Source of the DNA: an uncultured virus (IMG/VR IMGVR_UViG_3300030117_006168)
Lineage: Duplodnaviria > Heunggongvirae > Uroviricota > Caudoviricetes
Reading direction: 5' to 3' (one strand)
Length of the DNA stretch: 64,000 nucleotides
Virus record (IMG/VR): IMGVR_UViG_3300030117_006168
The first letter of the stretch is position 1, and every line of letters starts with the position of its first letter. A program made the translations under genes and the position numbers. Positions 1 through 40,862 of this stretch are shown piece after piece. The notes under the pieces are model-generated. The model did not search any database. It saw only the letters and a program-made list of their open reading frames with translations, and was not told the DNA's origin.

Positions 1-1
1 A

Positions 2-211
2 TTTTCAAATGAGGTTAATGCAAAATATCATGATATAAAATCATGGGCAATAGAAAATGAAAGCCTAGAAGAAAGAACAATTAGAATCCTAGAAAACGCA
101 GGAGTAGATAAAGCTTTGATAAAAAGAAAATTTCTTGTGCCTAGCGATTTCTATTTAACGCCTCAACAGGCAATTAATTATGGGGTTATAGATCATATTT
201 TAGAGAGGTAA
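2..211 (+). CDS. ClpP-like protease, C-terminal part (truncated by window edge)
   Basis: Manual translation ends ...FLVPSDFYLTPQQAINYGVIDHILER*, matching the ClpP C-terminal pattern D-x-[YF]-x-T-x-x-x-A-x-x-Y-G-[LIV]-I-D; catalytic Ser lies outside the window. Confidence 0.7.
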   Translation, partial: FSNEVNAKYHDIKSWAIENESLEERTIRILENAGVDKALIKRKFLVPSDFYLTPQQAINYGVIDHILER

Positions 212-213
212 AA

Positions 214-360
214 ATGCAACAGATAAGTCAACAAGTAATTAAAACTAAAAAAACTAAACTTACTAAAAAATCAAAAGGTTTAAAACATGAGAGGGTAAAA
301 CATCATGATAAGTCCACATATCGAAACTTTAAAAGGGAAAAGGAGGAAATAGGAGTATGA
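214..360 (+). CDS. small basic hypothetical protein (48 aa)
   Basis: ATG at 214 after GAGG; MQQISQQVIKTKKTKL...; stop overlaps next ATG (ATGA). Confidence 0.55.
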   Translation: MQQISQQVIKTKKTKLTKKSKGLKHERVKHHDKSTYRNFKREKEEIGV

Positions 361-536
361 TGACAAAAGACCAGGTAGAACAGAGAATTACAGAGCTTTA
401 TAGTCAAATTGCCACATCAAGAGCTGGTGTAGCTGAGGTACAAAGAGAATTAGATAGTTTAATTAAAATGAAATTTGATAATGAGGGCAACAGGATCTTT
501 GAAAATACTGAAACTAGAGGTTTATTACAGGGGTAG
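357..536 (+). CDS. small hypothetical protein (59 aa)
   Basis: AGGAG upstream, MMTKDQVEQRITELYSQ...GLLQG*; coiled-coil-like. Confidence 0.6.
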   Translation: MMTKDQVEQRITELYSQIATSRAGVAEVQRELDSLIKMKFDNEGNRIFENTETRGLLQG

Positions 537-554
537 TGTTGTAAAAATACAACA
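537..554. promoter_or_regulatory. 18-bp inverted repeat upstream of early promoter (putative operator)
   Basis: TGTTGTA-AAAA-TACAACA, followed by an A-tract and the -35 box at 576. Confidence 0.5.
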
Positions 555-575
555 AAAAAAAGATGAAAAAAGCTG

Positions 576-604
576 TTGACATTTCATCAATATGCCTATA
601 AAAT
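576..604 (+). promoter_or_regulatory. sigma70-type early promoter
   Basis: TTGACA-17bp-TAAAAT with upstream A-tract. Confidence 0.8.
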
Positions 605-610
605 GGTTTT

Positions 611-848
611 AACAGTTGAGATAGTTCTAAAAGATCATAAGTCTTAAATCAAGCAGATCAAGTCAGATAAATCGAAATGGTAGTTAGGTGGAAAAAGTAT
701 GACGACCTAACTTGATAAAGCTTCTACTTTGTCCAGCTTATCAAGATAGTGTTAGTAACAACTGTTTGAGATAAAAAGTTGTCGGCGGAGGACGAAAAAT
801 CTCCTTCACAGGAAGCCAAGACAATACCTAACTACGAAACCTTTTTTT
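611..848 (+). ncRNA. candidate structured non-coding RNA of unknown family
   Basis: Starts at predicted TSS, ends in a T-run, no credible ORF; complementary pairs 611-618/759-766, 680-689/826-835, 711-722/735-745, 779-790/801-824. Confidence 0.5.
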
Positions 849-859
849 TATTATGAATT

Positions 860-935
860 AGCGGTGTAGAGAAGTAGTCATCTCATCTGGCTCATATCCA
901 GAAGATCGCAGGTGCAAATCCTGTCACCGCAACCA
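860..935 (+). tRNA. tRNA-Met(CAT), initiator (fMet) type
   Basis: 76-nt cloverleaf: acceptor GCGGTG/CACCGC with A1xA72 mismatch, D stem GAGA/TCTC (A11:U24), anticodon stem TCTGG/CCAGA with loop CTCATAT, T arm GCAGG/CCTGT, encoded CCA. Confidence 0.93.
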
Positions 936-937
936 AT

Positions 938-1252
938 TTGAAAGATATTATGGGTACGATTAATACGGGCGTCAGATGGTCTAAAAAGACCAGAAAAATG
1001 TTGTTAAAGAACAAGACAAAAAAAGTTAAATTAACGGCTCAAAAATCACCCATTGAAATTAGACCCGTTTGCCCTCCTAGGCAAACTTATAGACCACCAT
1101 CTCTAAATTCTGGAGATGCCGTGGCACTTAAAAAAGACAATCAAGTTTATACTGGTAGTAATATGAAAGGCATTGGTACGTTGCATAAAAGCAACGCTGT
1201 GCCTATTTTTACTGATGAGGAAGCCAAAGATCAAGCAAACATGAGAAGATAA
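938..1252 (+). CDS. conserved T4-like phage hypothetical protein
   Basis: ORF with C-terminal YTG...KGIGTLHKSNAVPIF...ANMRR motif that I recognise from T4-like phage proteins; true start may be ATG 950. Confidence 0.7.
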   Translation: MKDIMGTINTGVRWSKKTRKMLLKNKTKKVKLTAQKSPIEIRPVCPPRQTYRPPSLNSGDAVALKKDNQVYTGSNMKGIGTLHKSNAVPIFTDEEAKDQANMRR

Positions 1253-1264
1253 TGCTTGACATTT
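1235..1264 (+). repeat. 30-bp direct repeat, copy 1
   Basis: GCAAACATGAGAAGATAATGCTTGACATTT; 28/30 identical to 1633-1662. Confidence 0.9.
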
Positions 1265-1284
1265 CAGGCAACCTCCATTAGGAT
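1256..1284 (+). promoter_or_regulatory. sigma70-type early promoter
   Basis: TTGACA-17bp-TAGGAT. Confidence 0.8.
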
Positions 1285-1317
1285 GGAATCATAGTTAAAC
1301 AGAAAAGGAAATACGAA

Positions 1318-1626
1318 ATGCTAACAGTTACAAATCTTACCTCCGTAGATTACTTAATTAGAAATCTTCCATTAGCTGATGCCACAATGTTGGGTGATAT
1401 TATCGCTGAAACAATTGAAGTTGTGAATGATGTTGCTGAGGTCCCTTATACTGAAGATGAGCTAAGAGGTTTTACCCTTATAGGGTTTGAGGATTTTCTA
1501 GCTGATCAAATTAATGAGCACTCTACTCTTGGTTTTCATGATCATGAGGACGAGAATGTGATCCGTTATGAAAGATTCGTAGAAATACTTGAAAGATTGA
1601 CTTACAGGGATGAAGAGGTTGCCTAA
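1318..1626 (+). CDS. acidic hypothetical protein
   Basis: 102-aa ORF, AAGGA SD, own promoter, flanked by direct repeats. Confidence 0.75.
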   Translation: MLTVTNLTSVDYLIRNLPLADATMLGDIIAETIEVVNDVAEVPYTEDELRGFTLIGFEDFLADQINEHSTLGFHDHEDENVIRYERFVEILERLTYRDEEVA

Positions 1627-1636
1627 TATTAGGCAA
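1619..1636. promoter_or_regulatory. perfect 18-bp palindrome upstream of early promoter
   Basis: TTGCCTAATATTAGGCAA equals its reverse complement. Confidence 0.5.
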
Positions 1637-1662
1637 ACATAAGAATATAATGCTTGACATTT
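1633..1662 (+). repeat. 30-bp direct repeat, copy 2
   Basis: GCAAACATAAGAATATAATGCTTGACATTT. Confidence 0.9.
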
Positions 1663-1682
1663 GGGTATTTAACCTGCATTAT
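1654..1682 (+). promoter_or_regulatory. sigma70-type early promoter
   Basis: TTGACA-17bp-CATTAT. Confidence 0.65.
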
Positions 1683-1715
1683 AAAACAGTACATTATAAC
1701 TATGAGGAAATATAG

Positions 1716-2156
1716 ATGTCTAAGATTAAATACAAACCGTATCAAAAACTACTGATTTTGTTTTTCAATAATAAAGACGAAAAAGGTAGAGCTAAAGTTA
1801 CAGTAGATGAAATAGATTCTACTATGGCTGATCAAATTCATATGTATAGATTGTCAACATACATTTGGCATATCAAAACAAATGTGAATGGTGTTGTGCG
1901 AAGTATTCGTGGCGACACACCAGAAACAAAACGAAAGGTCGTTGCTTACGAATTATGCAATGTGAACGAGGTAGCAGACAGACTCAAAGTAATGGGTATT
2001 ATGAATGCTAGTCAAACTTTCATTGACATACCAGTAAAGACTTTAAAAAAGTTTCGCCCTAAAAAAGTGAAAAAATTAACTGATTTAAATGCTCAGTTAT
2101 CTGATTCTTTAAAAGCCATTGAAACAACAGAAAAAGTGGAAGAGAGGGTCATATAA
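1716..2156 (+). CDS. hypothetical protein, possibly winged-helix DNA-binding
   Basis: 146 aa, basic, GAGGA SD; helix (YRLSTYIWHIK) followed by beta-hairpin-like KVVAYEL; fold is a guess. Confidence 0.6.
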   Translation: MSKIKYKPYQKLLILFFNNKDEKGRAKVTVDEIDSTMADQIHMYRLSTYIWHIKTNVNGVVRSIRGDTPETKRKVVAYELCNVNEVADRLKVMGIMNASQTFIDIPVKTLKKFRPKKVKKLTDLNAQLSDSLKAIETTEKVEERVI

Positions 2157-2914
2157 TGAGATTAGTTTCTTTTGCTTTGGCTATGGCCATAACCACTAGC
2201 GCTTTTGCTCTTGATCGTAATTACCCAATGGCAAAGTCAGAAAATTCTATTGAAGCTCAAGGCACTTATTATTTTGGGCCAGAAACTTCAGAGAATTTAG
2301 CTTGTTCATTGGCTGAAGAAAGAGCAAAAGAAGCCGCCATTTTAAAGAAAGTTGGTGAGATAGTAGAGTTGATGGAAGTACAAACTTGCCGTAATGAAGA
2401 TTGTGAAACATCAAGAGAATTTGCTAACACTTTGACTGGTGCTATACGAAAAATAATTTCAAGAAAAATTGAAAAGATCATTGAACAAGGTAAATCATCT
2501 TGTATTGTAACGATTCAAGCTGAAGTTGATGAGGTAAGAAATCAAACAGTCTTTTATATACAAAATGAGTCTTTTCAATTTAAAAACAATGAGAACATTC
2601 AATTTGTAGGTGTTGCAAATAGAAAAGGTAAACTTATTGTTTTTCATCAATCTGATACCGTTTACACAAAGTTTTATGAAACTACTGTAAACAAAGTAGG
2701 TAGTCAATTTAAGATACCTAATAACGGTAAAAAGATAATCGCAAAATTACCTGAAGGTAAAGATTTATCTAAAGAAAGATTGATGTTTTTGTTTTTAGAG
2801 GTTGACATTCCAGTAAAACAGGTATATACTCATAATGAGATACAGAAGTTTGTTGAAAACGTACCTGTATTACAAAGGCGTGTTGTTTATCATTCAACTC
2901 AAATTGTGAGGTAA
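2156..2914 (+). CDS. exported protein (LPP20/FlgT-N-like N domain, DUF4384-like C domain)
   Basis: Sec signal peptide ending AFA; ACSLAEERAKEAAI helix, paired Cys; domain names tentative. Confidence 0.6.
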   Translation: MRLVSFALAMAITTSAFALDRNYPMAKSENSIEAQGTYYFGPETSENLACSLAEERAKEAAILKKVGEIVELMEVQTCRNEDCETSREFANTLTGAIRKIISRKIEKIIEQGKSSCIVTIQAEVDEVRNQTVFYIQNESFQFKNNENIQFVGVANRKGKLIVFHQSDTVYTKFYETTVNKVGSQFKIPNNGKKIIAKLPEGKDLSKERLMFLFLEVDIPVKQVYTHNEIQKFVENVPVLQRRVVYHSTQIVR

Positions 2915-2916
2915 TT

Positions 2917-3054
2917 ATGAAATATATTATGGTTTTGTTAATTACTATCTTTGTTACCGGTTGTGGTACAATAGGTGGTGCAGTAGATGGTGCTGGTGAT
3001 GATCTAAAAAGAGCTGGCAAGTATGTTAAAAACATTGGAAAGGACGATAAATGA
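2917..3054 (+). CDS. entericidin EcnA/B-like small lipoprotein (not in ORF track)
   Basis: GAGG SD; MKYIMVLLITIFVTGC-GTIGGAVDGAGDDLKRAGKYVKNIGKDDK; lipobox VTGC and C-x-T-x-x-G...G-x-D-[LI]-x-x-x-G pattern. Confidence 0.75.
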   Translation: MKYIMVLLITIFVTGCGTIGGAVDGAGDDLKRAGKYVKNIGKDDK

Positions 3055-35053: not shown

Positions 35054-36043
35054 ATGGCCGTATTCTCAATTTCAACTAAAAGAGTAGGCAGACCTGAAGG
35101 TTATCAATACCCAATAGGTTTATCCACAATCGCCACATCTATTAACGTGGCCACAAGTACGACTGGTGGTACTCAAACAGTAGATGGCACAAACGCCGTT
35201 CATACAATCACTTCATCAGGAAATTTTGTCACAAGCCCAGCTGCTAATTTTAACATAGAATATCTTGTTGTTGCTGGTGGTGGAGGAGGTGGCTGTTTTA
35301 CTGGCGGAGGCGGTGGCGCCGGAGGTTTAAGATTTGGGTCAGGTTTAGCCGTAACGGCAGGTAATACATATGTTGTCACAGTAGGTGCTGGAGGCGCAGC
35401 TAAAAGTGAAGCAGCCGGTGGAACTGCTGGTAATGATGGCGCAGATTCAAATATCGCACAAGGAATTGCAGCTACTTTAGCTACTGGTGGTGGAGGCGGT
35501 GGCACATTACAACCAAGTAGCCCATCACCAAACGCACATGGTAGAACGGGTGGTTCTGGAGGCGGAGGTGCTCACGCATCTAATCCTGGAGGAACAGGAA
35601 ATAACCCACCTGTAAGTCCATCACAAGGAAATAATGGTGGCACAGGAAGTCCAGGTCCAGTAGGAAGTGGAGGTGGTGGTGGCGGACACAACGCTGCTGG
35701 TAGTAATGCAGGCTCTACGGGTGGAAATGGCGGAGCTGGTTCTTCTTATTCAATTTCTGGTTCGTCAGTTGCTTATGCTGGTGGCGGAGGTGGAGGTGGC
35801 GATTCTGCTGGCGGTGGTCCTGCAGCTGGAGGATCTGGAGGTACCGGTGGTGGAGGAGCAGGTAGTAAAGATGCAGCTACAGCTACAAGTGGAACGGCGA
35901 ATCGTGGTGGTGGAGGCGGAGGATCAGGAGATGCAGGCGCTCAATCTGGCGCTGGCGGTTCAGGTGTCGTAATTATAAGGTATATTATGGCTCAAGATTC
36001 ACTAGAGTATGATATTCTTGGAGCACCAGGAGGGCCAGCTTAA
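35054..36043 (+). CDS. glycine-rich adhesin-like protein 1
   Basis: EYLVVAGGGGGG...VTVGAGG...YAGGGGGG...GGSGVVIIRY. Confidence 0.8.
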   Translation: MAVFSISTKRVGRPEGYQYPIGLSTIATSINVATSTTGGTQTVDGTNAVHTITSSGNFVTSPAANFNIEYLVVAGGGGGGCFTGGGGGAGGLRFGSGLAVTAGNTYVVTVGAGGAAKSEAAGGTAGNDGADSNIAQGIAATLATGGGGGGTLQPSSPSPNAHGRTGGSGGGGAHASNPGGTGNNPPVSPSQGNNGGTGSPGPVGSGGGGGGHNAAGSNAGSTGGNGGAGSSYSISGSSVAYAGGGGGGGDSAGGGPAAGGSGGTGGGGAGSKDAATATSGTANRGGGGGGSGDAGAQSGAGGSGVVIIRYIMAQDSLEYDILGAPGGPA

Positions 36044-37041
36044 TGAGAGGAACTATTTCCACTTTTACTTTTCGACCTGAAGGTTATGCTTATCCAATAG
36101 GGTTAACTAGCAAAACTATTTTAGGCACAGCAAATGCAGCTACAAACACAACTGGCGGCACACAAACAATAGATGGGACAAATGCTGTTCATGAATTTAC
36201 ATCCACTGCTAATTTTGTACCAAGTTTCGCTGTAACAGGAGAATTTTTAATAATTGCAGGTGGCGGAGGAGGTGGTGCAGGTGGTGCTGGTGGAGGTGCA
36301 GGTGGGTTTAGATATAGTTCAGGTCTTTCTTTAGTTAAAGATAAAGAATATAAATTTACAATTGGCGGTGGCGGAGCTGCTGGTACAGGTGGTTCTAGTG
36401 CATTTAATCCTGGAACAAAAGGTACTGATTCTTCTATTACATCACCATCACCTTTTTCAGATATAGTTTCAACAGGTGGTGGTTACGGAGGATCAAGAGC
36501 TAATGGAGGACCTGGAGGTTCTGGTGGCGGAGGCGGTGGTTTTCCTAATGGCACTTATTCAGGTGGGAGTGGAAATACTCCGCCTGTAAGTCCTTCACAA
36601 GGTAACAACGGCGGTATTGGTCACTCTGATAATGCAACATGGACAACGGGAGGTGGAGGCGGCGGTGCTGGCGCCGTTGGTGGTGAAGCGCCATCTCCAG
36701 GTAGTGCAGGTGGAGTTGGGGGAGCTGGTACAGCATTATCTATTTCAGGATCATCTGTGACTAGAGCAGGTGGCGGAGGTGGAAGTGGCACAACAGGAGG
36801 TAGTAGACCTGGAGGGGCTGGAGGATCTGGCGGTGGAGGTGCAGGTGCTGGAGGCGGCCCGACTGGAACTGCTGGAACTACAAACACTGGTGGAGGTGGC
36901 GGAGGTGGTTCAGATGGAGGTACAACAACAACAGGTGGTGCTGGTGGATCTGGAGTAGGATATGCAAGATATGTTTTCTCAGCATCTGCACCAGAGGTAG
37001 TTTATGATATAGGTGGTGCAACAGGTGGACCTGTGTCATAA
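36043..37041 (+). CDS. glycine-rich adhesin-like protein 2
   Basis: Same scaffold; shares GN-x-PPVSPSQGNNGG with protein 1. Confidence 0.8.
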   Translation: MRGTISTFTFRPEGYAYPIGLTSKTILGTANAATNTTGGTQTIDGTNAVHEFTSTANFVPSFAVTGEFLIIAGGGGGGAGGAGGGAGGFRYSSGLSLVKDKEYKFTIGGGGAAGTGGSSAFNPGTKGTDSSITSPSPFSDIVSTGGGYGGSRANGGPGGSGGGGGGFPNGTYSGGSGNTPPVSPSQGNNGGIGHSDNATWTTGGGGGGAGAVGGEAPSPGSAGGVGGAGTALSISGSSVTRAGGGGGSGTTGGSRPGGAGGSGGGGAGAGGGPTGTAGTTNTGGGGGGGSDGGTTTTGGAGGSGVGYARYVFSASAPEVVYDIGGATGGPVS

Positions 37042-37054
37042 ATACAAAAAGATT

Positions 37055-37062
37055 TATAAATA
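37055..37062 (+). promoter_or_regulatory. T4-type late promoter
   Basis: TATAAATA (plus CATAAATA at 37037-37044). Confidence 0.75.
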
Positions 37063-37086
37063 GAGAATTAAGGAGGATTATTTAAA

Positions 37087-37497
37087 ATGAATGTGAATGA
37101 TATAGCAAAAAGTTTTACAGGTCAATCTGGTCTTGGTTATGGTATTGATACAGCAATCAAAGCTTTAAGACCAAATGCTAAATTTGAAATGAACGCTGGT
37201 GGTGGTGAGTTTTCTTTCCCTACATGGGATGATCCTGATGGTAAGAAACCACCAACTAAAAAACAGATTATGGATGAATTTGAAAGACAAAAAAAAGTAG
37301 CAGAATATTATCAGTATGCTTATGATCGTTGTCATGAATACCCTGATGGATTTGAACAGTTAGATATGTTATGGCACGCTGTAAATAGTGGCAAAGATTT
37401 GAAAGAGTCAGAGTGGTTTAAAAGAATAGAAGCAGTTAAAAAGAATAACCCAAAACCTGAAGGTGATCCACCTCCAGAGTACGAACCAGAGGACTAA
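37087..37497 (+). CDS. fibre assembly/chaperone-like protein (XkdW-like)
   Basis: AIKALRPNAKF, R-x-x-EYP-x-x-x-EQLDMLWH, IEAVK-x-x-x-PK. Confidence 0.65.
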   Translation: MNVNDIAKSFTGQSGLGYGIDTAIKALRPNAKFEMNAGGGEFSFPTWDDPDGKKPPTKKQIMDEFERQKKVAEYYQYAYDRCHEYPDGFEQLDMLWHAVNSGKDLKESEWFKRIEAVKKNNPKPEGDPPPEYEPED

Positions 37498-37500
37498 TAA

Positions 37501-37866
37501 ATGGCATTATCAAGAGTTTTCTTAGTAGGATCCGGTGTCGATATTATTATCGGTGCGAATACTGTTACAACAGGTTCAATTAAAGCTAACACTATTCTAC
37601 CAAATAATGTAGCAGAGGGAACTCTTACGGCTGATAGAATAAAAGGTAATACAATTAATTCGAGCCACATAGCAAGTGGTACAATATTAAGCACTTCATT
37701 AGCTAACGTAGCAAATCCACCAGGAGGTTTAAGTTATGGTGGTGCAAGTGCTATACCTTCAATTTCAGTAAATGACAAAGGTCAAATAACAAGAGTAGCT
37801 AACGTAGCTGTATCAATTGGTGATGGCGGTGGCCTTAATCCATTTTTATTATTGGGAGTAGGATAA
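37501..37866 (+). CDS. short fibre/stub protein
   Basis: I-x-x-x-T-I repeats, SYGGASAIPSISVNDKGQIT, ends GGLNPFLLLGVG. Confidence 0.75.
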   Translation: MALSRVFLVGSGVDIIIGANTVTTGSIKANTILPNNVAEGTLTADRIKGNTINSSHIASGTILSTSLANVANPPGGLSYGGASAIPSISVNDKGQITRVANVAVSIGDGGGLNPFLLLGVG

Positions 37867-38252
37867 TGGCACAATCTTATGGAATATTAGGACAAATATA
37901 TCTAGGACAAAGTGGGTCCTCTAACACCAACAATGTACTTTCAAATGTATATTCTTGTCCTGTAGGCTCTAACACAATTATCAATTCAATTTATCTTTGT
38001 AACCAAAGTGCTACAAATGGTAATGTTTCAGTTGCACTTTATCCTCATACACTTGGTACCAATCCTATTGGGGAGGTTGGAAATAGTCACTTTGTTTTAA
38101 AAGATCAAGAAATAAGGCAAGCTGAATCACTTATACTTAATTTAAATTTGACAATGAATGCTGGAACCACACTCGCTGTAAATAATGCAGTTAGAACAGG
38201 TGAAACTTTTTCTAATGTGTCAATAAGTGCATTTGGTGTCGCAATAACATAA
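37866..38252 (+). CDS. small beta-rich fibre adaptor, paralog 3
   Basis: MAQSYGILGQ...VYSCP...LCNQ...SISAFGVAIT. Confidence 0.75.
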   Translation: MAQSYGILGQIYLGQSGSSNTNNVLSNVYSCPVGSNTIINSIYLCNQSATNGNVSVALYPHTLGTNPIGEVGNSHFVLKDQEIRQAESLILNLNLTMNAGTTLAVNNAVRTGETFSNVSISAFGVAIT

Positions 38253-38262
38253 CGGAAAAATA

Positions 38263-38610
38263 ATGCCATCACAATATAAAACATTAGGTCAAATTTCTCC
38301 CGCAGCTAATACAACAACAAATGTTTATGTAAGTCCAGCAGATATTGGCGGTTCACCTGTTAATACAGTTATAGGAACATTAACAGTTCACAACCATACA
38401 GATGCAAATGCTTCATATAGTTTCTTTGTCAGACCAATCGCTCAAACTTTAGCTGATAAACACTTTATTATTAAAGGTGGTGTCGTACCGGCAAGAGAAC
38501 TTGTAACAATTACAGGAGCGGTTTGTATGAACTCTAGTGTGATTCTTGCAGCTAATACAAATAAAACAGGCATTACTTTTAATGCCTATGGCGCTGAAAT
38601 TACTACATAA
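38263..38610 (+). CDS. small beta-rich fibre adaptor, paralog 4
   Basis: MPSQYKTLGQ...VYVSP...HFIIKGGVVP...FNAYGAEITT. Confidence 0.75.
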   Translation: MPSQYKTLGQISPAANTTTNVYVSPADIGGSPVNTVIGTLTVHNHTDANASYSFFVRPIAQTLADKHFIIKGGVVPARELVTITGAVCMNSSVILAANTNKTGITFNAYGAEITT

Positions 38611-38616
38611 TGAATC

Positions 38617-39891
38617 ATGTCAGTAAATTTCAAATTTAACAAAATTCAATTACAAAGAACTAGACCAGACAAATATAAATTTCCTATTGGTCTAAGTTCT
38701 GGCTTCTTAACACCCACAGGAAATTCTGCTTCTGTAACAGAAGGTGGATTACAAACGTGTTTAGCTGGAGGTGATGGCACTCCTGGAACTGTTGCAGCTG
38801 GTAACACATTTCATACCTTTGCAAACCCAAGCGGATCAGGAACTTTTACTCCATCATTTACAGGTGATATAGATTTATTAGTTGTAGCTGCTGGCGGAGG
38901 TGGTGGATTTTGTGGTGGTGGAGGTGGTGGCGGTGGTATTGCTTTTGCTCAAAATTTTCCCGTTATAGCAGGTAGAGATTATACTGTATCCGTAGGCGCT
39001 GGCGGTGCTCTCGGAAATGATGGGTCTCCAACCGGTTCTGGACCAGGTCATAATGGGGCAAATAGTTCTTTTAAAGATTCAGTAACAAATGTAGAAGTTG
39101 TAGGTATAGGAGGTGGTGGAGGTCACGGAATACCCTCATTTCCTTCAAATTCTGCGACAAGTGATCGTTTTGTTCGATCTCAATTTGGAGGTTCTGCTGG
39201 AGGAGCAGGTTCACTACCAGCACTTTCCCCTCTAAGGACACCTGGAACCCCAGCTACACAACCAAGTCAAAATGAAGGAATTTCAGGTGTATCAAATTTT
39301 GGTCAAGCCAGCGGCGATTCAACTTGGAATGTTAATCCTCACCCAGCACTCGGATCAAATGGGGGTGGTGGCGGAGCAGGTCAAGAGGGTGGAGGAAATC
39401 AACCTACATCTGTAGCACAAGAAATAGGAGGAAAAGCTCCAGGTGGGACTGCAAGTACAGCTGAGTCTGGAGGCACAGGCATAAATTTTGCTGGGTTTGC
39501 TGAAGCTGGAGTAGGCACTTCAGGAGGTTTCGGCATAGGTTTATCATCACCACAATCAGCAGGATTTTTCGGTGGTGGCGGAGGCGCTGGTGGTTGGTAT
39601 GATCCAGGTGATGCAAGAGTAGTTGGTCTTGGAGGCGCCGGAGGTGGAGGCGGAGCTCCTTTTTCTCCTGCATCAGAACCCGGTTCTACTGCACCTAATG
39701 GAACTGGTTTAGCAAACACAGGAGGTGGAGGCCGAGGTGGTTCAGGTATGGCCTCTAATCTAACCCCTTTTGTAATTAATAGATCAGGCACTCCATCAGA
39801 TGCAGATGGGCCAAAAGCAGGCGGTTCAGGAATAGTTGTAATTAAATATAGAACAGATGCAAATGCAGTAACAGGATTTTTCATAAGCTAA
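38617..39891 (+). CDS. glycine-rich adhesin-like protein 3
   Basis: DLLVVAAGGGGG...ANTGGGG...GGSGIVVIKY. Confidence 0.8.
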   Translation: MSVNFKFNKIQLQRTRPDKYKFPIGLSSGFLTPTGNSASVTEGGLQTCLAGGDGTPGTVAAGNTFHTFANPSGSGTFTPSFTGDIDLLVVAAGGGGGFCGGGGGGGGIAFAQNFPVIAGRDYTVSVGAGGALGNDGSPTGSGPGHNGANSSFKDSVTNVEVVGIGGGGGHGIPSFPSNSATSDRFVRSQFGGSAGGAGSLPALSPLRTPGTPATQPSQNEGISGVSNFGQASGDSTWNVNPHPALGSNGGGGGAGQEGGGNQPTSVAQEIGGKAPGGTASTAESGGTGINFAGFAEAGVGTSGGFGIGLSSPQSAGFFGGGGGAGGWYDPGDARVVGLGGAGGGGGAPFSPASEPGSTAPNGTGLANTGGGGRGGSGMASNLTPFVINRSGTPSDADGPKAGGSGIVVIKYRTDANAVTGFFIS

Positions 39892-40862
39892 TGGGCGTAA
39901 ATTTTACTAGAAACCAAGTTGCTAAAGAGAAACAAAGAATAGAGACCACAAGACCTACGGGTTTTACTTTTCCTCTAGGTCTGACCTTTGGAAAATTAGT
40001 TGTTGCATCTCAAAATGCTTTTCCTACATCTACTGGTGGCACTAAAACAACAGATAGCACTAATAGTGTTCATACATTTACCACATCAGGCACTTTCAAA
40101 CCAAGTTTCACAGGCACAATAGAATATTTGGGAATCGCAGGTGGTGGCGGTGGAGGCCCAACAGGACCTGGAGGTGGATCAGGCGGAGGTGGTGGCGCTG
40201 GTGGTTTAGTATATCTTCATAATGCTCCGGTTGAAAGAGATGTTTCATACACTATCACAGTTGGTGCTGGCGGAGCTGCATCTCCAGGAACTAGAGGTAG
40301 TAATACAAATACAACAATACCCACAATTGTAGAGTCAATAGGCGGTGGCGCTTTTGGTTTTGGAGGTGGTTCTGCTGGGGGTGCACCTGGAGCTAGAAAT
40401 GCCTCAGCACCGGGAACAGTTCATGCTGGCGTTCAAGGTCCTGAGGCACCTCAACCTTCTACTCCTCCAGCTGGAGGATTATCACTCGGTAATCCTAATC
40501 AAGGTAGTAGAGGCGGTGGTGGAGCAGGAGCTCCAGGAACTAATCCAGGAGCTCCTTACGCAACTCCTACAGCAGGTGGAGGTGGAGCCGGTTACGCTAT
40601 GTCTATTTCAGGAACTAGAGTTGGTTACGCAGGTGGCGGAGGCGGAATCGCATATGTAATTAACGGATCGCCAACTAATATCCCTACTGGATCTGGAGGT
40701 CACGGCGGTGATGGACCAGGAACTTCTGCTTCAGCTAATAGAGGGAGTGGTGGTGGCGGTTGTAACGGATTTGGTGCAGGAGGCGGTGGAGGAGGTGGTT
40801 CAGGTATTGTAATTGTAAGATACATTAGTAATCAAGAACTTGAAGGTTATTTTATAACTTAA
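39891..40862 (+). CDS. glycine-rich adhesin-like protein 4
   Basis: EYLGIAGGGGGG...YAGGGGG...GGSGIVIVRY. Confidence 0.8.
   Translation: MGVNFTRNQVAKEKQRIETTRPTGFTFPLGLTFGKLVVASQNAFPTSTGGTKTTDSTNSVHTFTTSGTFKPSFTGTIEYLGIAGGGGGGPTGPGGGSGGGGGAGGLVYLHNAPVERDVSYTITVGAGGAASPGTRGSNTNTTIPTIVESIGGGAFGFGGGSAGGAPGARNASAPGTVHAGVQGPEAPQPSTPPAGGLSLGNPNQGSRGGGGAGAPGTNPGAPYATPTAGGGGAGYAMSISGTRVGYAGGGGGIAYVINGSPTNIPTGSGGHGGDGPGTSASANRGSGGGGCNGFGAGGGGGGGSGIVIVRYISNQELEGYFIT

Follow-up and report, generated by a model that had tools for sequence, protein, structure and literature searches.

Comparison of sequence variants indicates that a short stretch behind an early promoter of an uncultured phage (IMG/VR record IMGVR_UViG_3300030117_006168; Duplodnaviria, Heunggongvirae, Uroviricota, Caudoviricetes) is a real non-coding RNA gene. 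It occupies positions 611–841, + strand, of the 64,000-nt stretch of DNA that was analysed as a whole and that we call the window, and by the same comparison it represents a new, uncatalogued family among the small structured RNAs of phages. As for what the gene would do, we put the probability at roughly 50% that it stands alone and yields a structured, stable, end-locked small RNA that is made from an early promoter and acts in trans. This is the best explanation that we can offer, and everything said here of function is purely inferred.

The RNA locus is in the early-type region of a marine T4-like myophage. The window is A+T-rich (~33% G+C), and its PHROGs matches are those of a T4-type myophage (gp32-like SSB, helicase loader, sheath, portal and scaffold; further matches are to baseplate wedge and hub proteins, the major head protein and the large terminase). 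No deposited phage has a major head protein more than 62% identical to that of the window; the best matches are cyanomyoviruses and the Methylophilales phage Melnitz. The early region runs from a stem-loop (537–554) through a promoter (576–604), ~235 nt without a conserved ORF and a T-run (842–849) to a tRNA-Met(CAT) gene (860–935). At its very edge the window begins within a Clp-protease-like gene (Pfam PF00574, E=4e-4), the C-terminal portion of which (2–211) lies directly 5' of the early small ORFs. Two further early-type promoters with AATGCTTGACATTT lie at 1254–1284 and 1651–1682, the second of them preceded by the stem-loop GCCTAATATTAGGC (1623–1636), and both belong to PeSL-like (promoter-early stem-loop) cassettes before small ORFs without family matches. 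Far from the locus, at 35054–40862, each of four adjacent genes close to those of neck and fibre matches phrog_2295 (unknown function); the clearly higher G+C of this block (~42% vs. 33%) suggests a paralogous, possibly acquired, gene set. The elements of the RNA locus, in window coordinates, are as follows:

537–554, + strand: stem-loop TGTTGTA-AAAA-TACAACA, read from the sequence; a related stem-loop stands before the promoter in relatives.
576–604, + strand: sigma70-type early promoter, TTGACA (576–581), 17 nt, TAAAAT (599–604); 11 of 12 consensus positions.
611–618, + strand: 5' strand of the pseudoknot helix PK, AACAGUUG; starts at the predicted first transcribed base and pairs with 759–766.
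619–679, + strand: 5' expansion, A/U-rich, with repeated AUCAAG (alignments A2 and A6).
680–689, + strand: 5' strand of the closing helix P1; pairs with 826–835, and 3 of the 10 pairs change on both sides.
690–750, + strand: middle expansion, with GGAAAAAG...GACGACCUAACU (local partner for the P1 strand, 705–712) and a hairpin (711–745); absent in 6 of 15 variants.
751–758, + strand: junction ending in conserved AGUAA (AGUAG in variant L072; A6).
759–766, + strand: 3' strand of PK, CAACUGUU; pairs with 611–618.
767–777, + strand: single-stranded junction UGAGAUAAAAA, nearly invariant in A6.
778–825, + strand: bulged hairpin P3 (778–783/820–825, 784–786/815–817, 787–792/802–807, C793 bulge, 794–795/800–801, loop 796–799).
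826–835, + strand: 3' strand of P1, which abuts P3 directly; pairs with 680–689.
836–849, + strand: tail GAAACC, then the T-run (842–849); CGAAA follows P1 in all variants.
860–935, + strand: tRNA-Met (CAT), a frequent neighbour outside the RNA, 25 nt downstream of it.

The RNA stretch is absent from deposited phages, in that a distant-mode search of GenBank phage DNA matched the tRNA alone. Homologues of the downstream 104-aa ORF led to 39 viral loci, and DNA like 540–940 was present in 11 of the 41 loci examined; the upstream 59-aa ORF, searched in viral contigs, gave two loci, none of them new. Exact-pattern scans of viral contigs returned 9, 12 and 11 stretches and supplied the new members L078, L082 and the L072 record (L049, one of the nine, was dropped as a G+C-rich chance match). 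The same kind of scan returned 21 stretches from metagenome contigs, among which L054, L056, L067 and L070 were unrelated chance matches and L051 and L058 incomplete copies, and 2 from bacterial and archaeal genomes, both rejected by covariance model. In 10 larger related viral records, covariance models R1 and R2 had a single real match, that in G001, and this search of related records added locus L072; the R1 matches L073 and L074 (16–17 bits) were judged to be due to chance. The models matched nothing in L012–L039, upstream of distant homologues of the 104-aa ORF, and nothing in Melnitz-3, HTVC008M and DSL-LC03, where an empty answer is of little weight.

Once chance matches and incomplete copies had been dropped, there were 15 distinct sequence variants, the window included, from 13 IMG/VR contigs and 17 metagenome contigs that are partly the same records. 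By length, taken over everything between and including the first helix strand and the closing helix, they fall into classes of 221–225 nt (the window's class), 205 nt (L072), 172 nt, which does without window 690–750, and 112–114 nt (L010 and L078), which does without both 619–679 and 690–745. The 5' expansion at 619–679 is found in the 172–225-nt forms (95.7–100% identity among those that carry it), is replaced by other sequence in L072 and is absent in the 112–114-nt forms; on this comparison, 619–679 and 690–750 are optional expansions. What is invariant across the variants is a core, AGUAAC..CUGUUUGAGAUAAAAAGUUGUCGGC...GGACGA.....CUCC...CCAAG.CAAUAC. The RNA occurs once in the 64-kb window and once in its 144-kb relative G001. 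Region 540–1300 was also present in DNA runs of eight sea-water studies, at no less than half of the sampled words. Two alignments, A3 and A4, were set aside, as MAFFT had misplaced the P1 strand or an incomplete row in them.

A preliminary description of this stretch, made from the letters alone, had named several complementarities, and on re-reading the sequence all of them are where it had placed them. AACAGTTG (611–618) is the perfect complement of CAACTGTT (759–766), GTAGTTAGGT (680–689) complements ACCTAACTAC (826–835) over 10 bp, the part 682–689 complements 705–712 over 8 bp, and the hairpin at 711–745 is present (711–718/738–745 and 720–722/735–737, with A719 bulged). A GC-rich branched element had also been described at 779–824; a G+C-richer element does lie there (778–825), but it is a single bulged hairpin, unbranched. 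The folding energy of 605–860 (256 nt) is unexceptional (z −1.27; 22 of 200 shuffles fold as well), and an 8-bp perfect match is expected, by our estimate, about once in an A+T-rich 230-mer. The pairings of the single sequence are thus not beyond chance, and comparison with relatives had to decide.

We found that the relatives keep the structure. Against shuffles, the compact forms gave z −3.9 (L078), −3.1 (L006 core) and −2.2 (L010), the P3 hairpin alone gave z −2.6, and RNAalifold on eight sequences recovered the distal helix and the long hairpin. The explicit structure (PK, P1 and P3) was scored on alignment A6 of the 15 variants, in which the PK 5' strand is misaligned in two short-class rows and counted as gaps there. 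Over 35 pairs, 99.2% of 507 cells are standard pairs (99.3% of cells in P1), and double-side changes occur at six pairs, of which P1 has three, P3 two (G-C to A-U and A-U to C-G) and PK one. None of 500 shuffles reached the observed percentage paired, number of double-change pairs, number of double-change cells or covariation score, and 170 of the 500 reached the observed value of a fifth measure, further pair types. When the partners were slid by 1–3 columns, pairing fell to 35–56%. The G-U pair 778/825 is invariant and 788/806 is found in 14 of 15 rows, with one gap; since the complementary strand would have A-C mismatches in place of G-U pairs, the + strand is the one that is read as RNA.

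Given that 611<680<766<835, PK and P1 cross, as had been noted for the 611/759 and 680/826 helices, and the pseudoknot of two crossing helices stays paired through changes on both sides in relatives. By direct tabulation, none of the 15 variants loses any of the eight PK pairs, and the helix occurs in three states: AACAGUUG/CAACUGUU in 12 variants; AACAGUUG/CGGCUGUU, with two U-G pairs, in L010 and L078; and GAUGGUUG/CAACUGUC in L072, whose 5' strand has three changes, all still paired and one of them matched by a change in the partner. We therefore regard the 611–618/759–766 pseudoknot as likely on the comparative evidence, and P1 and P3, on the same evidence, as more secure than the pseudoknot. 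The informative changes come from three divergent lineages only (L010/L078, L072 and variation within the long forms), and so the covariation amounts to few independent events. A760G and A761G, the short-form changes that support PK, also fit a competing local hairpin, and U766C of L072 could pair with a local GACAG as well. The bases of the PK 3' strand can form a weak local hairpin (753–756/761–764), and in the short forms 1 nt lies between the PK strand and P1, which limits the geometry.

The promoter points to the same first base as the fold. From the end of the −10 hexamer to the first helix strand there are exactly 6 nt in 14 of 15 variants, and the spacing is kept among several differing promoter sequences. 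In the fifteenth, L071, inspection by eye places GATAAT, a hexamer outside the search pattern, at that distance. By this spacing, the first base of the RNA would be the first base of the PK helix. A pairing between GGUUUU (605–610) and GAAACC (836–841) was rejected, as it lies 5' of the predicted start and L003-type promoters do not preserve it. At the other end, the window has the T-run at 842–849 that had been described; among the variants it is present in some only, is absent in L072 and amounts to five T in the short forms, and we found no canonical terminator in window 1–3000.

Traces of the RNA are present in RNA libraries. Six RNA-library runs contain a small share of 540–1300, and four RNA-library runs from three studies were compared with 400–1400. 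All contigs of the four fall within 598–840, barring the upstream extension of one piece from run X19; there is no cover over 400–569 or 842–1400, and the uncovered part proves nothing. The single contig of run X17 (165 nt) has an insert over 609/610–749 between adapter remnants, and this insert starts within 2 nt of the predicted +1. Runs X15 and X16 (one sample) gave a 151-nt contig over 699–840 that stops at 840 without a loose end. X19 gave three pieces of other variants, one of which extends 50 nt upstream of 598 into an L003-type promoter, an extension that may be due to DNA carry-over or read-through. For the discrete transcript that had been supposed, such contigs are supportive and not proof; strand, level and true ends are not shown by them.

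We then asked what kind of constraint the stretch is under. Compared with relatives L003, L006, L009, L055, L064 and L066, the RNA core is 94–96% and the 5' segment 96–97% identical, vs. 85–88% for the tRNA and 69–88% (DNA) for the flanking ORFs; the RNA stretch is thus under stronger constraint than the adjoining tRNA. The earlier judgement that it holds no credible ORF is borne out by the variants, among which no + strand ORF is conserved; a 25-codon TTG frame on the + strand (779–856) has a stop inside it in L003-type variants. On the minus strand, a TTG frame of 22–37 codons (window 724–824) is open in 15 of 15 variants. From the way its sequence varies, we consider the frame to be a by-product of RNA conservation: between the window and L078, 5 of the 24 residues aligned are different, the C-termini shift with every indel, and the P3 segment has ~7 nucleotide changes, almost all of them non-synonymous (by-eye count).

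Among catalogued RNAs we found no counterpart. Searched with Rfam 15 (4227 models) at gathering score, the whole window matched the tRNA alone; over 400–1100 at E up to 10, the one addition to the tRNA was a chance miRNA match (E=1, other strand), and in four relatives, which between them cover every length class, only tRNAs and chance matches came up. With this result, the proposal of an uncatalogued structured small RNA behind an early phage promoter stands: it is kept in 15 variants, it lies outside the Rfam families, the search for homologues brought both conservation and double-side changes, and contigs of RNA libraries carry it. The RNA is not described in the literature searched, and it may be among the 8,495 unnamed viral candidate RNAs of PMC10690425. 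ToxI-like tandem repeats were not found in the RNA.

Small stable RNAs beside the tRNA genes of T4 have been known for about fifty years. Two of them, rnaC (species 1, 139 nt) and rnaD (species 2, 119 nt), are small non-coding RNAs of the T4 tRNA region (AF158101 annotation), and the RNA described here resembles them in belonging to a T4-type phage, in lying beside a tRNA gene and in being probably co-transcribed and processed with the tRNA. However, the T4 RNAs lie downstream of the tRNAs with no promoter directly in front, whereas the window RNA lies upstream and has its own promoter, and the fold of T4 rnaC has a tRNA-like T arm and lacks a pseudoknot at the 5' end, whereas the window RNA is predicted to be pseudoknotted. 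At E up to 10, model R1, run with filters off over T4 69000–75000, left both rnaC and rnaD unmatched; its best match (E 0.2) lies elsewhere in the locus. The relation to rnaC and rnaD is one of kind, not of family. We also observed that T4 rnaC (L097:1909–2047), which ends in its tRNA-like T arm, folds with z −4.6 vs. shuffles and rnaD with z −0.8, and that rnaC and the 5' end of the L072 RNA share the 9-mer GGUUGAGAU, probably by chance.

The layout of the locus recalls the PeSL cassettes of T4-type phages (Arbiol 2010, PMC2839356), which Comeau 2014 (PMC4122927) presents as a short stem-loop and promoter, followed by a ribosome-binding site and the start of an ORF. As in those cassettes (PMC4122927), a stem-loop (537–554) stands just 5' of a sigma70-like promoter (576–604) in a plastic early region with differing neighbours; unlike them, the promoter drives a covarying fold of 112–225 nt, with no Shine-Dalgarno or start codon of a conserved + strand ORF. 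By this analogy the PeSL layout would explain the mobility of the cassette, not the RNA, and the sequence contexts indicate that promoter and RNA move as a unit between genomic contexts behind a PeSL-like cassette. In flavivirus exonuclease-resistant RNAs, the 5' end is locked by a pseudoknot in a junction enclosed by a closing helix. The 5' helix of the window RNA is of 8 bp vs. 2–4 bp in the flavivirus RNAs, and the window RNA differs from these in having no sign of a ring or of sequence likeness.

In our preferred reading, that of a stand-alone trans-acting RNA, the host RNA polymerase would transcribe the RNA from the sigma70-type early promoter. In the fold that the comparison supports, the first eight bases of the transcript pair with 759–766, and P1 closes the body and stacks end to end on P3. 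Both ends are thus buried, the triphosphate 5' end by a helix of 8 bp and the 3' end by one of 10 bp; locked in this way, they would be protected from the end-dependent RNases of the host, and the RNA, as a compact and RNase-resistant particle, would accumulate early. Action in trans would proceed through the conserved junctions AGUAA and UGAGAUAAAAA, the bulged C793 and CCAAG, with the invariant junction nucleotides serving as a tertiary core or as a surface to which a protein binds. The target would most likely be a host or phage protein, rather than a partner in antisense pairing; across the 64-kb window, antisense targets numbered 6 matches of 11 nt vs. 6.9 expected, with none of 12 nt. 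Where tRNA-Met follows, the two would probably be co-transcribed, and an RNase P cut at the tRNA 5' end, with 3' trimming, would free the RNA.

The neighbourhood bears on whether the RNA could instead work in cis. A tRNA-Met lies within 260 nt 3' of the RNA for 11 of 15 variant representatives; it is missing within 255–260 nt for L009, L065 and L068 and missing also for L072, and L011, with the same RNA sequence as L065, does carry it. In L072 (144-kb record), the RNA comes after a glycosyltransferase-like gene and has its own promoter; a convergent RCC1-repeat ORF ends 7 nt past the RNA, and nothing lies downstream on the RNA's strand. An obligate leader or attenuator role is thereby excluded. 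No conserved protein neighbour was found, the flanks of L072 being glycosyltransferases and the RCC1-repeat protein. The anticodon stem of the window's own tRNA-Met(CAT) lacks the three G-C pairs typical of initiators, so that an elongator Met tRNA or an Ile tRNA of the lysidine type is probable.

Further elements occupy the gap between RNA and tRNA in relatives. Several have an extra element of ~98 nt between the T-run and the tRNA (L003:2798–2905, L006:2797–2905) that the window, at 849/850, does not have; an 11-bp stem, GTTTGTTGGAG/CTCCAACAAAC, encloses a structured interior that repeats the RNA motifs AGTAGTAA and ACAGTTGAG, and is followed by ATTTTATTTTTT, which makes the element terminator-like. 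L009 and L068 have a shorter version of it and no tRNA. In the metagenome variants L063 and L071 (560–646 in each, minus strand), a different, G+C-richer element of ~85 nt, CTTGCTAGGGCGGCATTGTAGTCAAGCCC..., lies between RNA and tRNA, and the promoter before the RNA differs as well; the RNA is thus combined with varying flanking modules.

The alternative that survives best, possible although we doubt it, is a cis-acting 5' module that would stabilise or process the downstream tRNA-Met and early ORFs, or would act as an antiterminator through RNA polymerase. The put RNAs of phage HK022 reportedly modify RNA polymerase to read through downstream stops, and several relatives do have a strong terminator-like hairpin between RNA and tRNA at which read-through would be needed. 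The RNA also starts at the predicted +1, 14–127 nt 5' of tRNA-Met in those 11 of 15 representatives, and its short forms have no terminator before the tRNA. Such a module would, however, have nothing to act on downstream in L072 and no tRNA within 255–260 nt in L009, L065 and L068, and it would be more conserved than the tRNA that it serves. The RNA-library contigs, moreover, lie on the RNA and not on the tRNA or an ORF (an absence that is weak evidence). The narrower proposal of the preliminary description, an attenuator of the tRNA, has to be given up, as the RNA of L072 and L009 has its own promoter but no tRNA, that of L072 is followed by no gene on its strand, and the T-run is missing in L072 and down to five T in the short forms.

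Quite improbable, in our view, is a conformational switch or riboswitch-like sensor, in which a ligand or protein would shift the RNA between alternative pairings that govern termination at the T-run. Competing pairings do exist in every form (682–689/705–712 in the long one, and a 4–7-bp hairpin using the PK 3' strand), and the junction nucleotides are highly conserved, as is typical of ligand pockets. But the pairing that had been proposed as mutually exclusive with the distal helix, 680–689 with 705–712, lacks its partner in 6 of 15 variants and shows no double-side change. The 711–745 hairpin is likewise absent in 6 of 15 variants, and for all three pairings, the 753–756/761–764 hairpin included, there are no double-side changes and 500 of 500 shuffles do as well; A740G in some variants leaves a U-G pair in the 711–745 hairpin. 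By this comparison, the pairings of 690–750 are a lineage-specific expansion and not an arm of a conserved switch. As a riboswitch or attenuator platform the locus also lacks any terminator-like site in 1–3000, a conserved T-run and, in L072, a gene to regulate, and no Rfam riboswitch matched at E up to 10.

HDV-like ribozymes typically have a G-U wobble at the cleavage site together with a short P3/L3 and P1.1, and theta ribozymes are linked to the maturation of tRNAs that lie upstream of them, whereas the window tRNA is downstream. A self-cleaving HDV-like ribozyme would nevertheless be suggested by analogy, as the topology matches by inspection: the strand order is that of P1-P2-P3-P1'-P4-P2', with crossing long-range helices. 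Theta ribozymes, which are HDV-like, are phage-borne and tRNA-associated, and the catalytic cytosine of the HDV-like fold is the first position of the J4/2 junction (PMC10879173). We consider this reading very improbable and reject membership, since P3 (to 825) abuts P1 (from 826) and leaves no J4/2 nucleotide for the cytosine as PMC10879173 places it. Furthermore, no 3-bp hairpin abuts 759 in any length class, so that P3/L3 and P1.1 cannot be drawn; the 5' helix opens with an A-U pair in 12 rows and a G-C pair in 1 row, not with G-U; the helix begins at the transcription start, which leaves nothing to cleave off; and no HDV-family Rfam model matched at E up to 10 in four variants.

We give just as little credence to there being no RNA gene at all, with the stretch being a DNA element (replication origin or PeSL-like recombination cassette) or the minus-strand ORF: that frame is open in every variant and the locus does move between genome contexts behind a PeSL-like stem-loop and promoter, but double-side helix changes and + strand G-U pairs are unexpected for a DNA site or coding sequence, the frame's differences are mostly non-synonymous with shifting C-termini, its TTG start has no well-spaced ribosome-binding site, and PeSLs (PMC4122927) are short and ORF-driving, not a conserved fold of 110–235 nt.

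Returning to the stand-alone trans-acting RNA, we see it as a structurally unrelated counterpart of the small stable RNAs of T4, under clear purifying selection, and as an uncatalogued family added to the structured RNAs of abundant uncultured marine phages. The spacing between promoter and helix, the covarying fold and the ocean RNA-library traces (three studies) together make the RNA well defined as an object for folding in vitro and for pull-down work. We have also considered a bolder version, unlikely as it is at present, in which the RNA would be the first of a new class of phage effector RNA: a compact, doubly end-locked pseudoknot would survive the host RNases and capture a specific host protein within minutes of infection (such as a nuclease of a defence system, an RNase, or a factor of translation or tRNA handling), and the optional expansions would tune the RNA to different hosts. 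If this were true, structured RNAs, not proteins, would carry out part of the early takeover by marine T4-like phages, and the RNA described here would provide a testable model for the unexplained rnaC and rnaD of T4.
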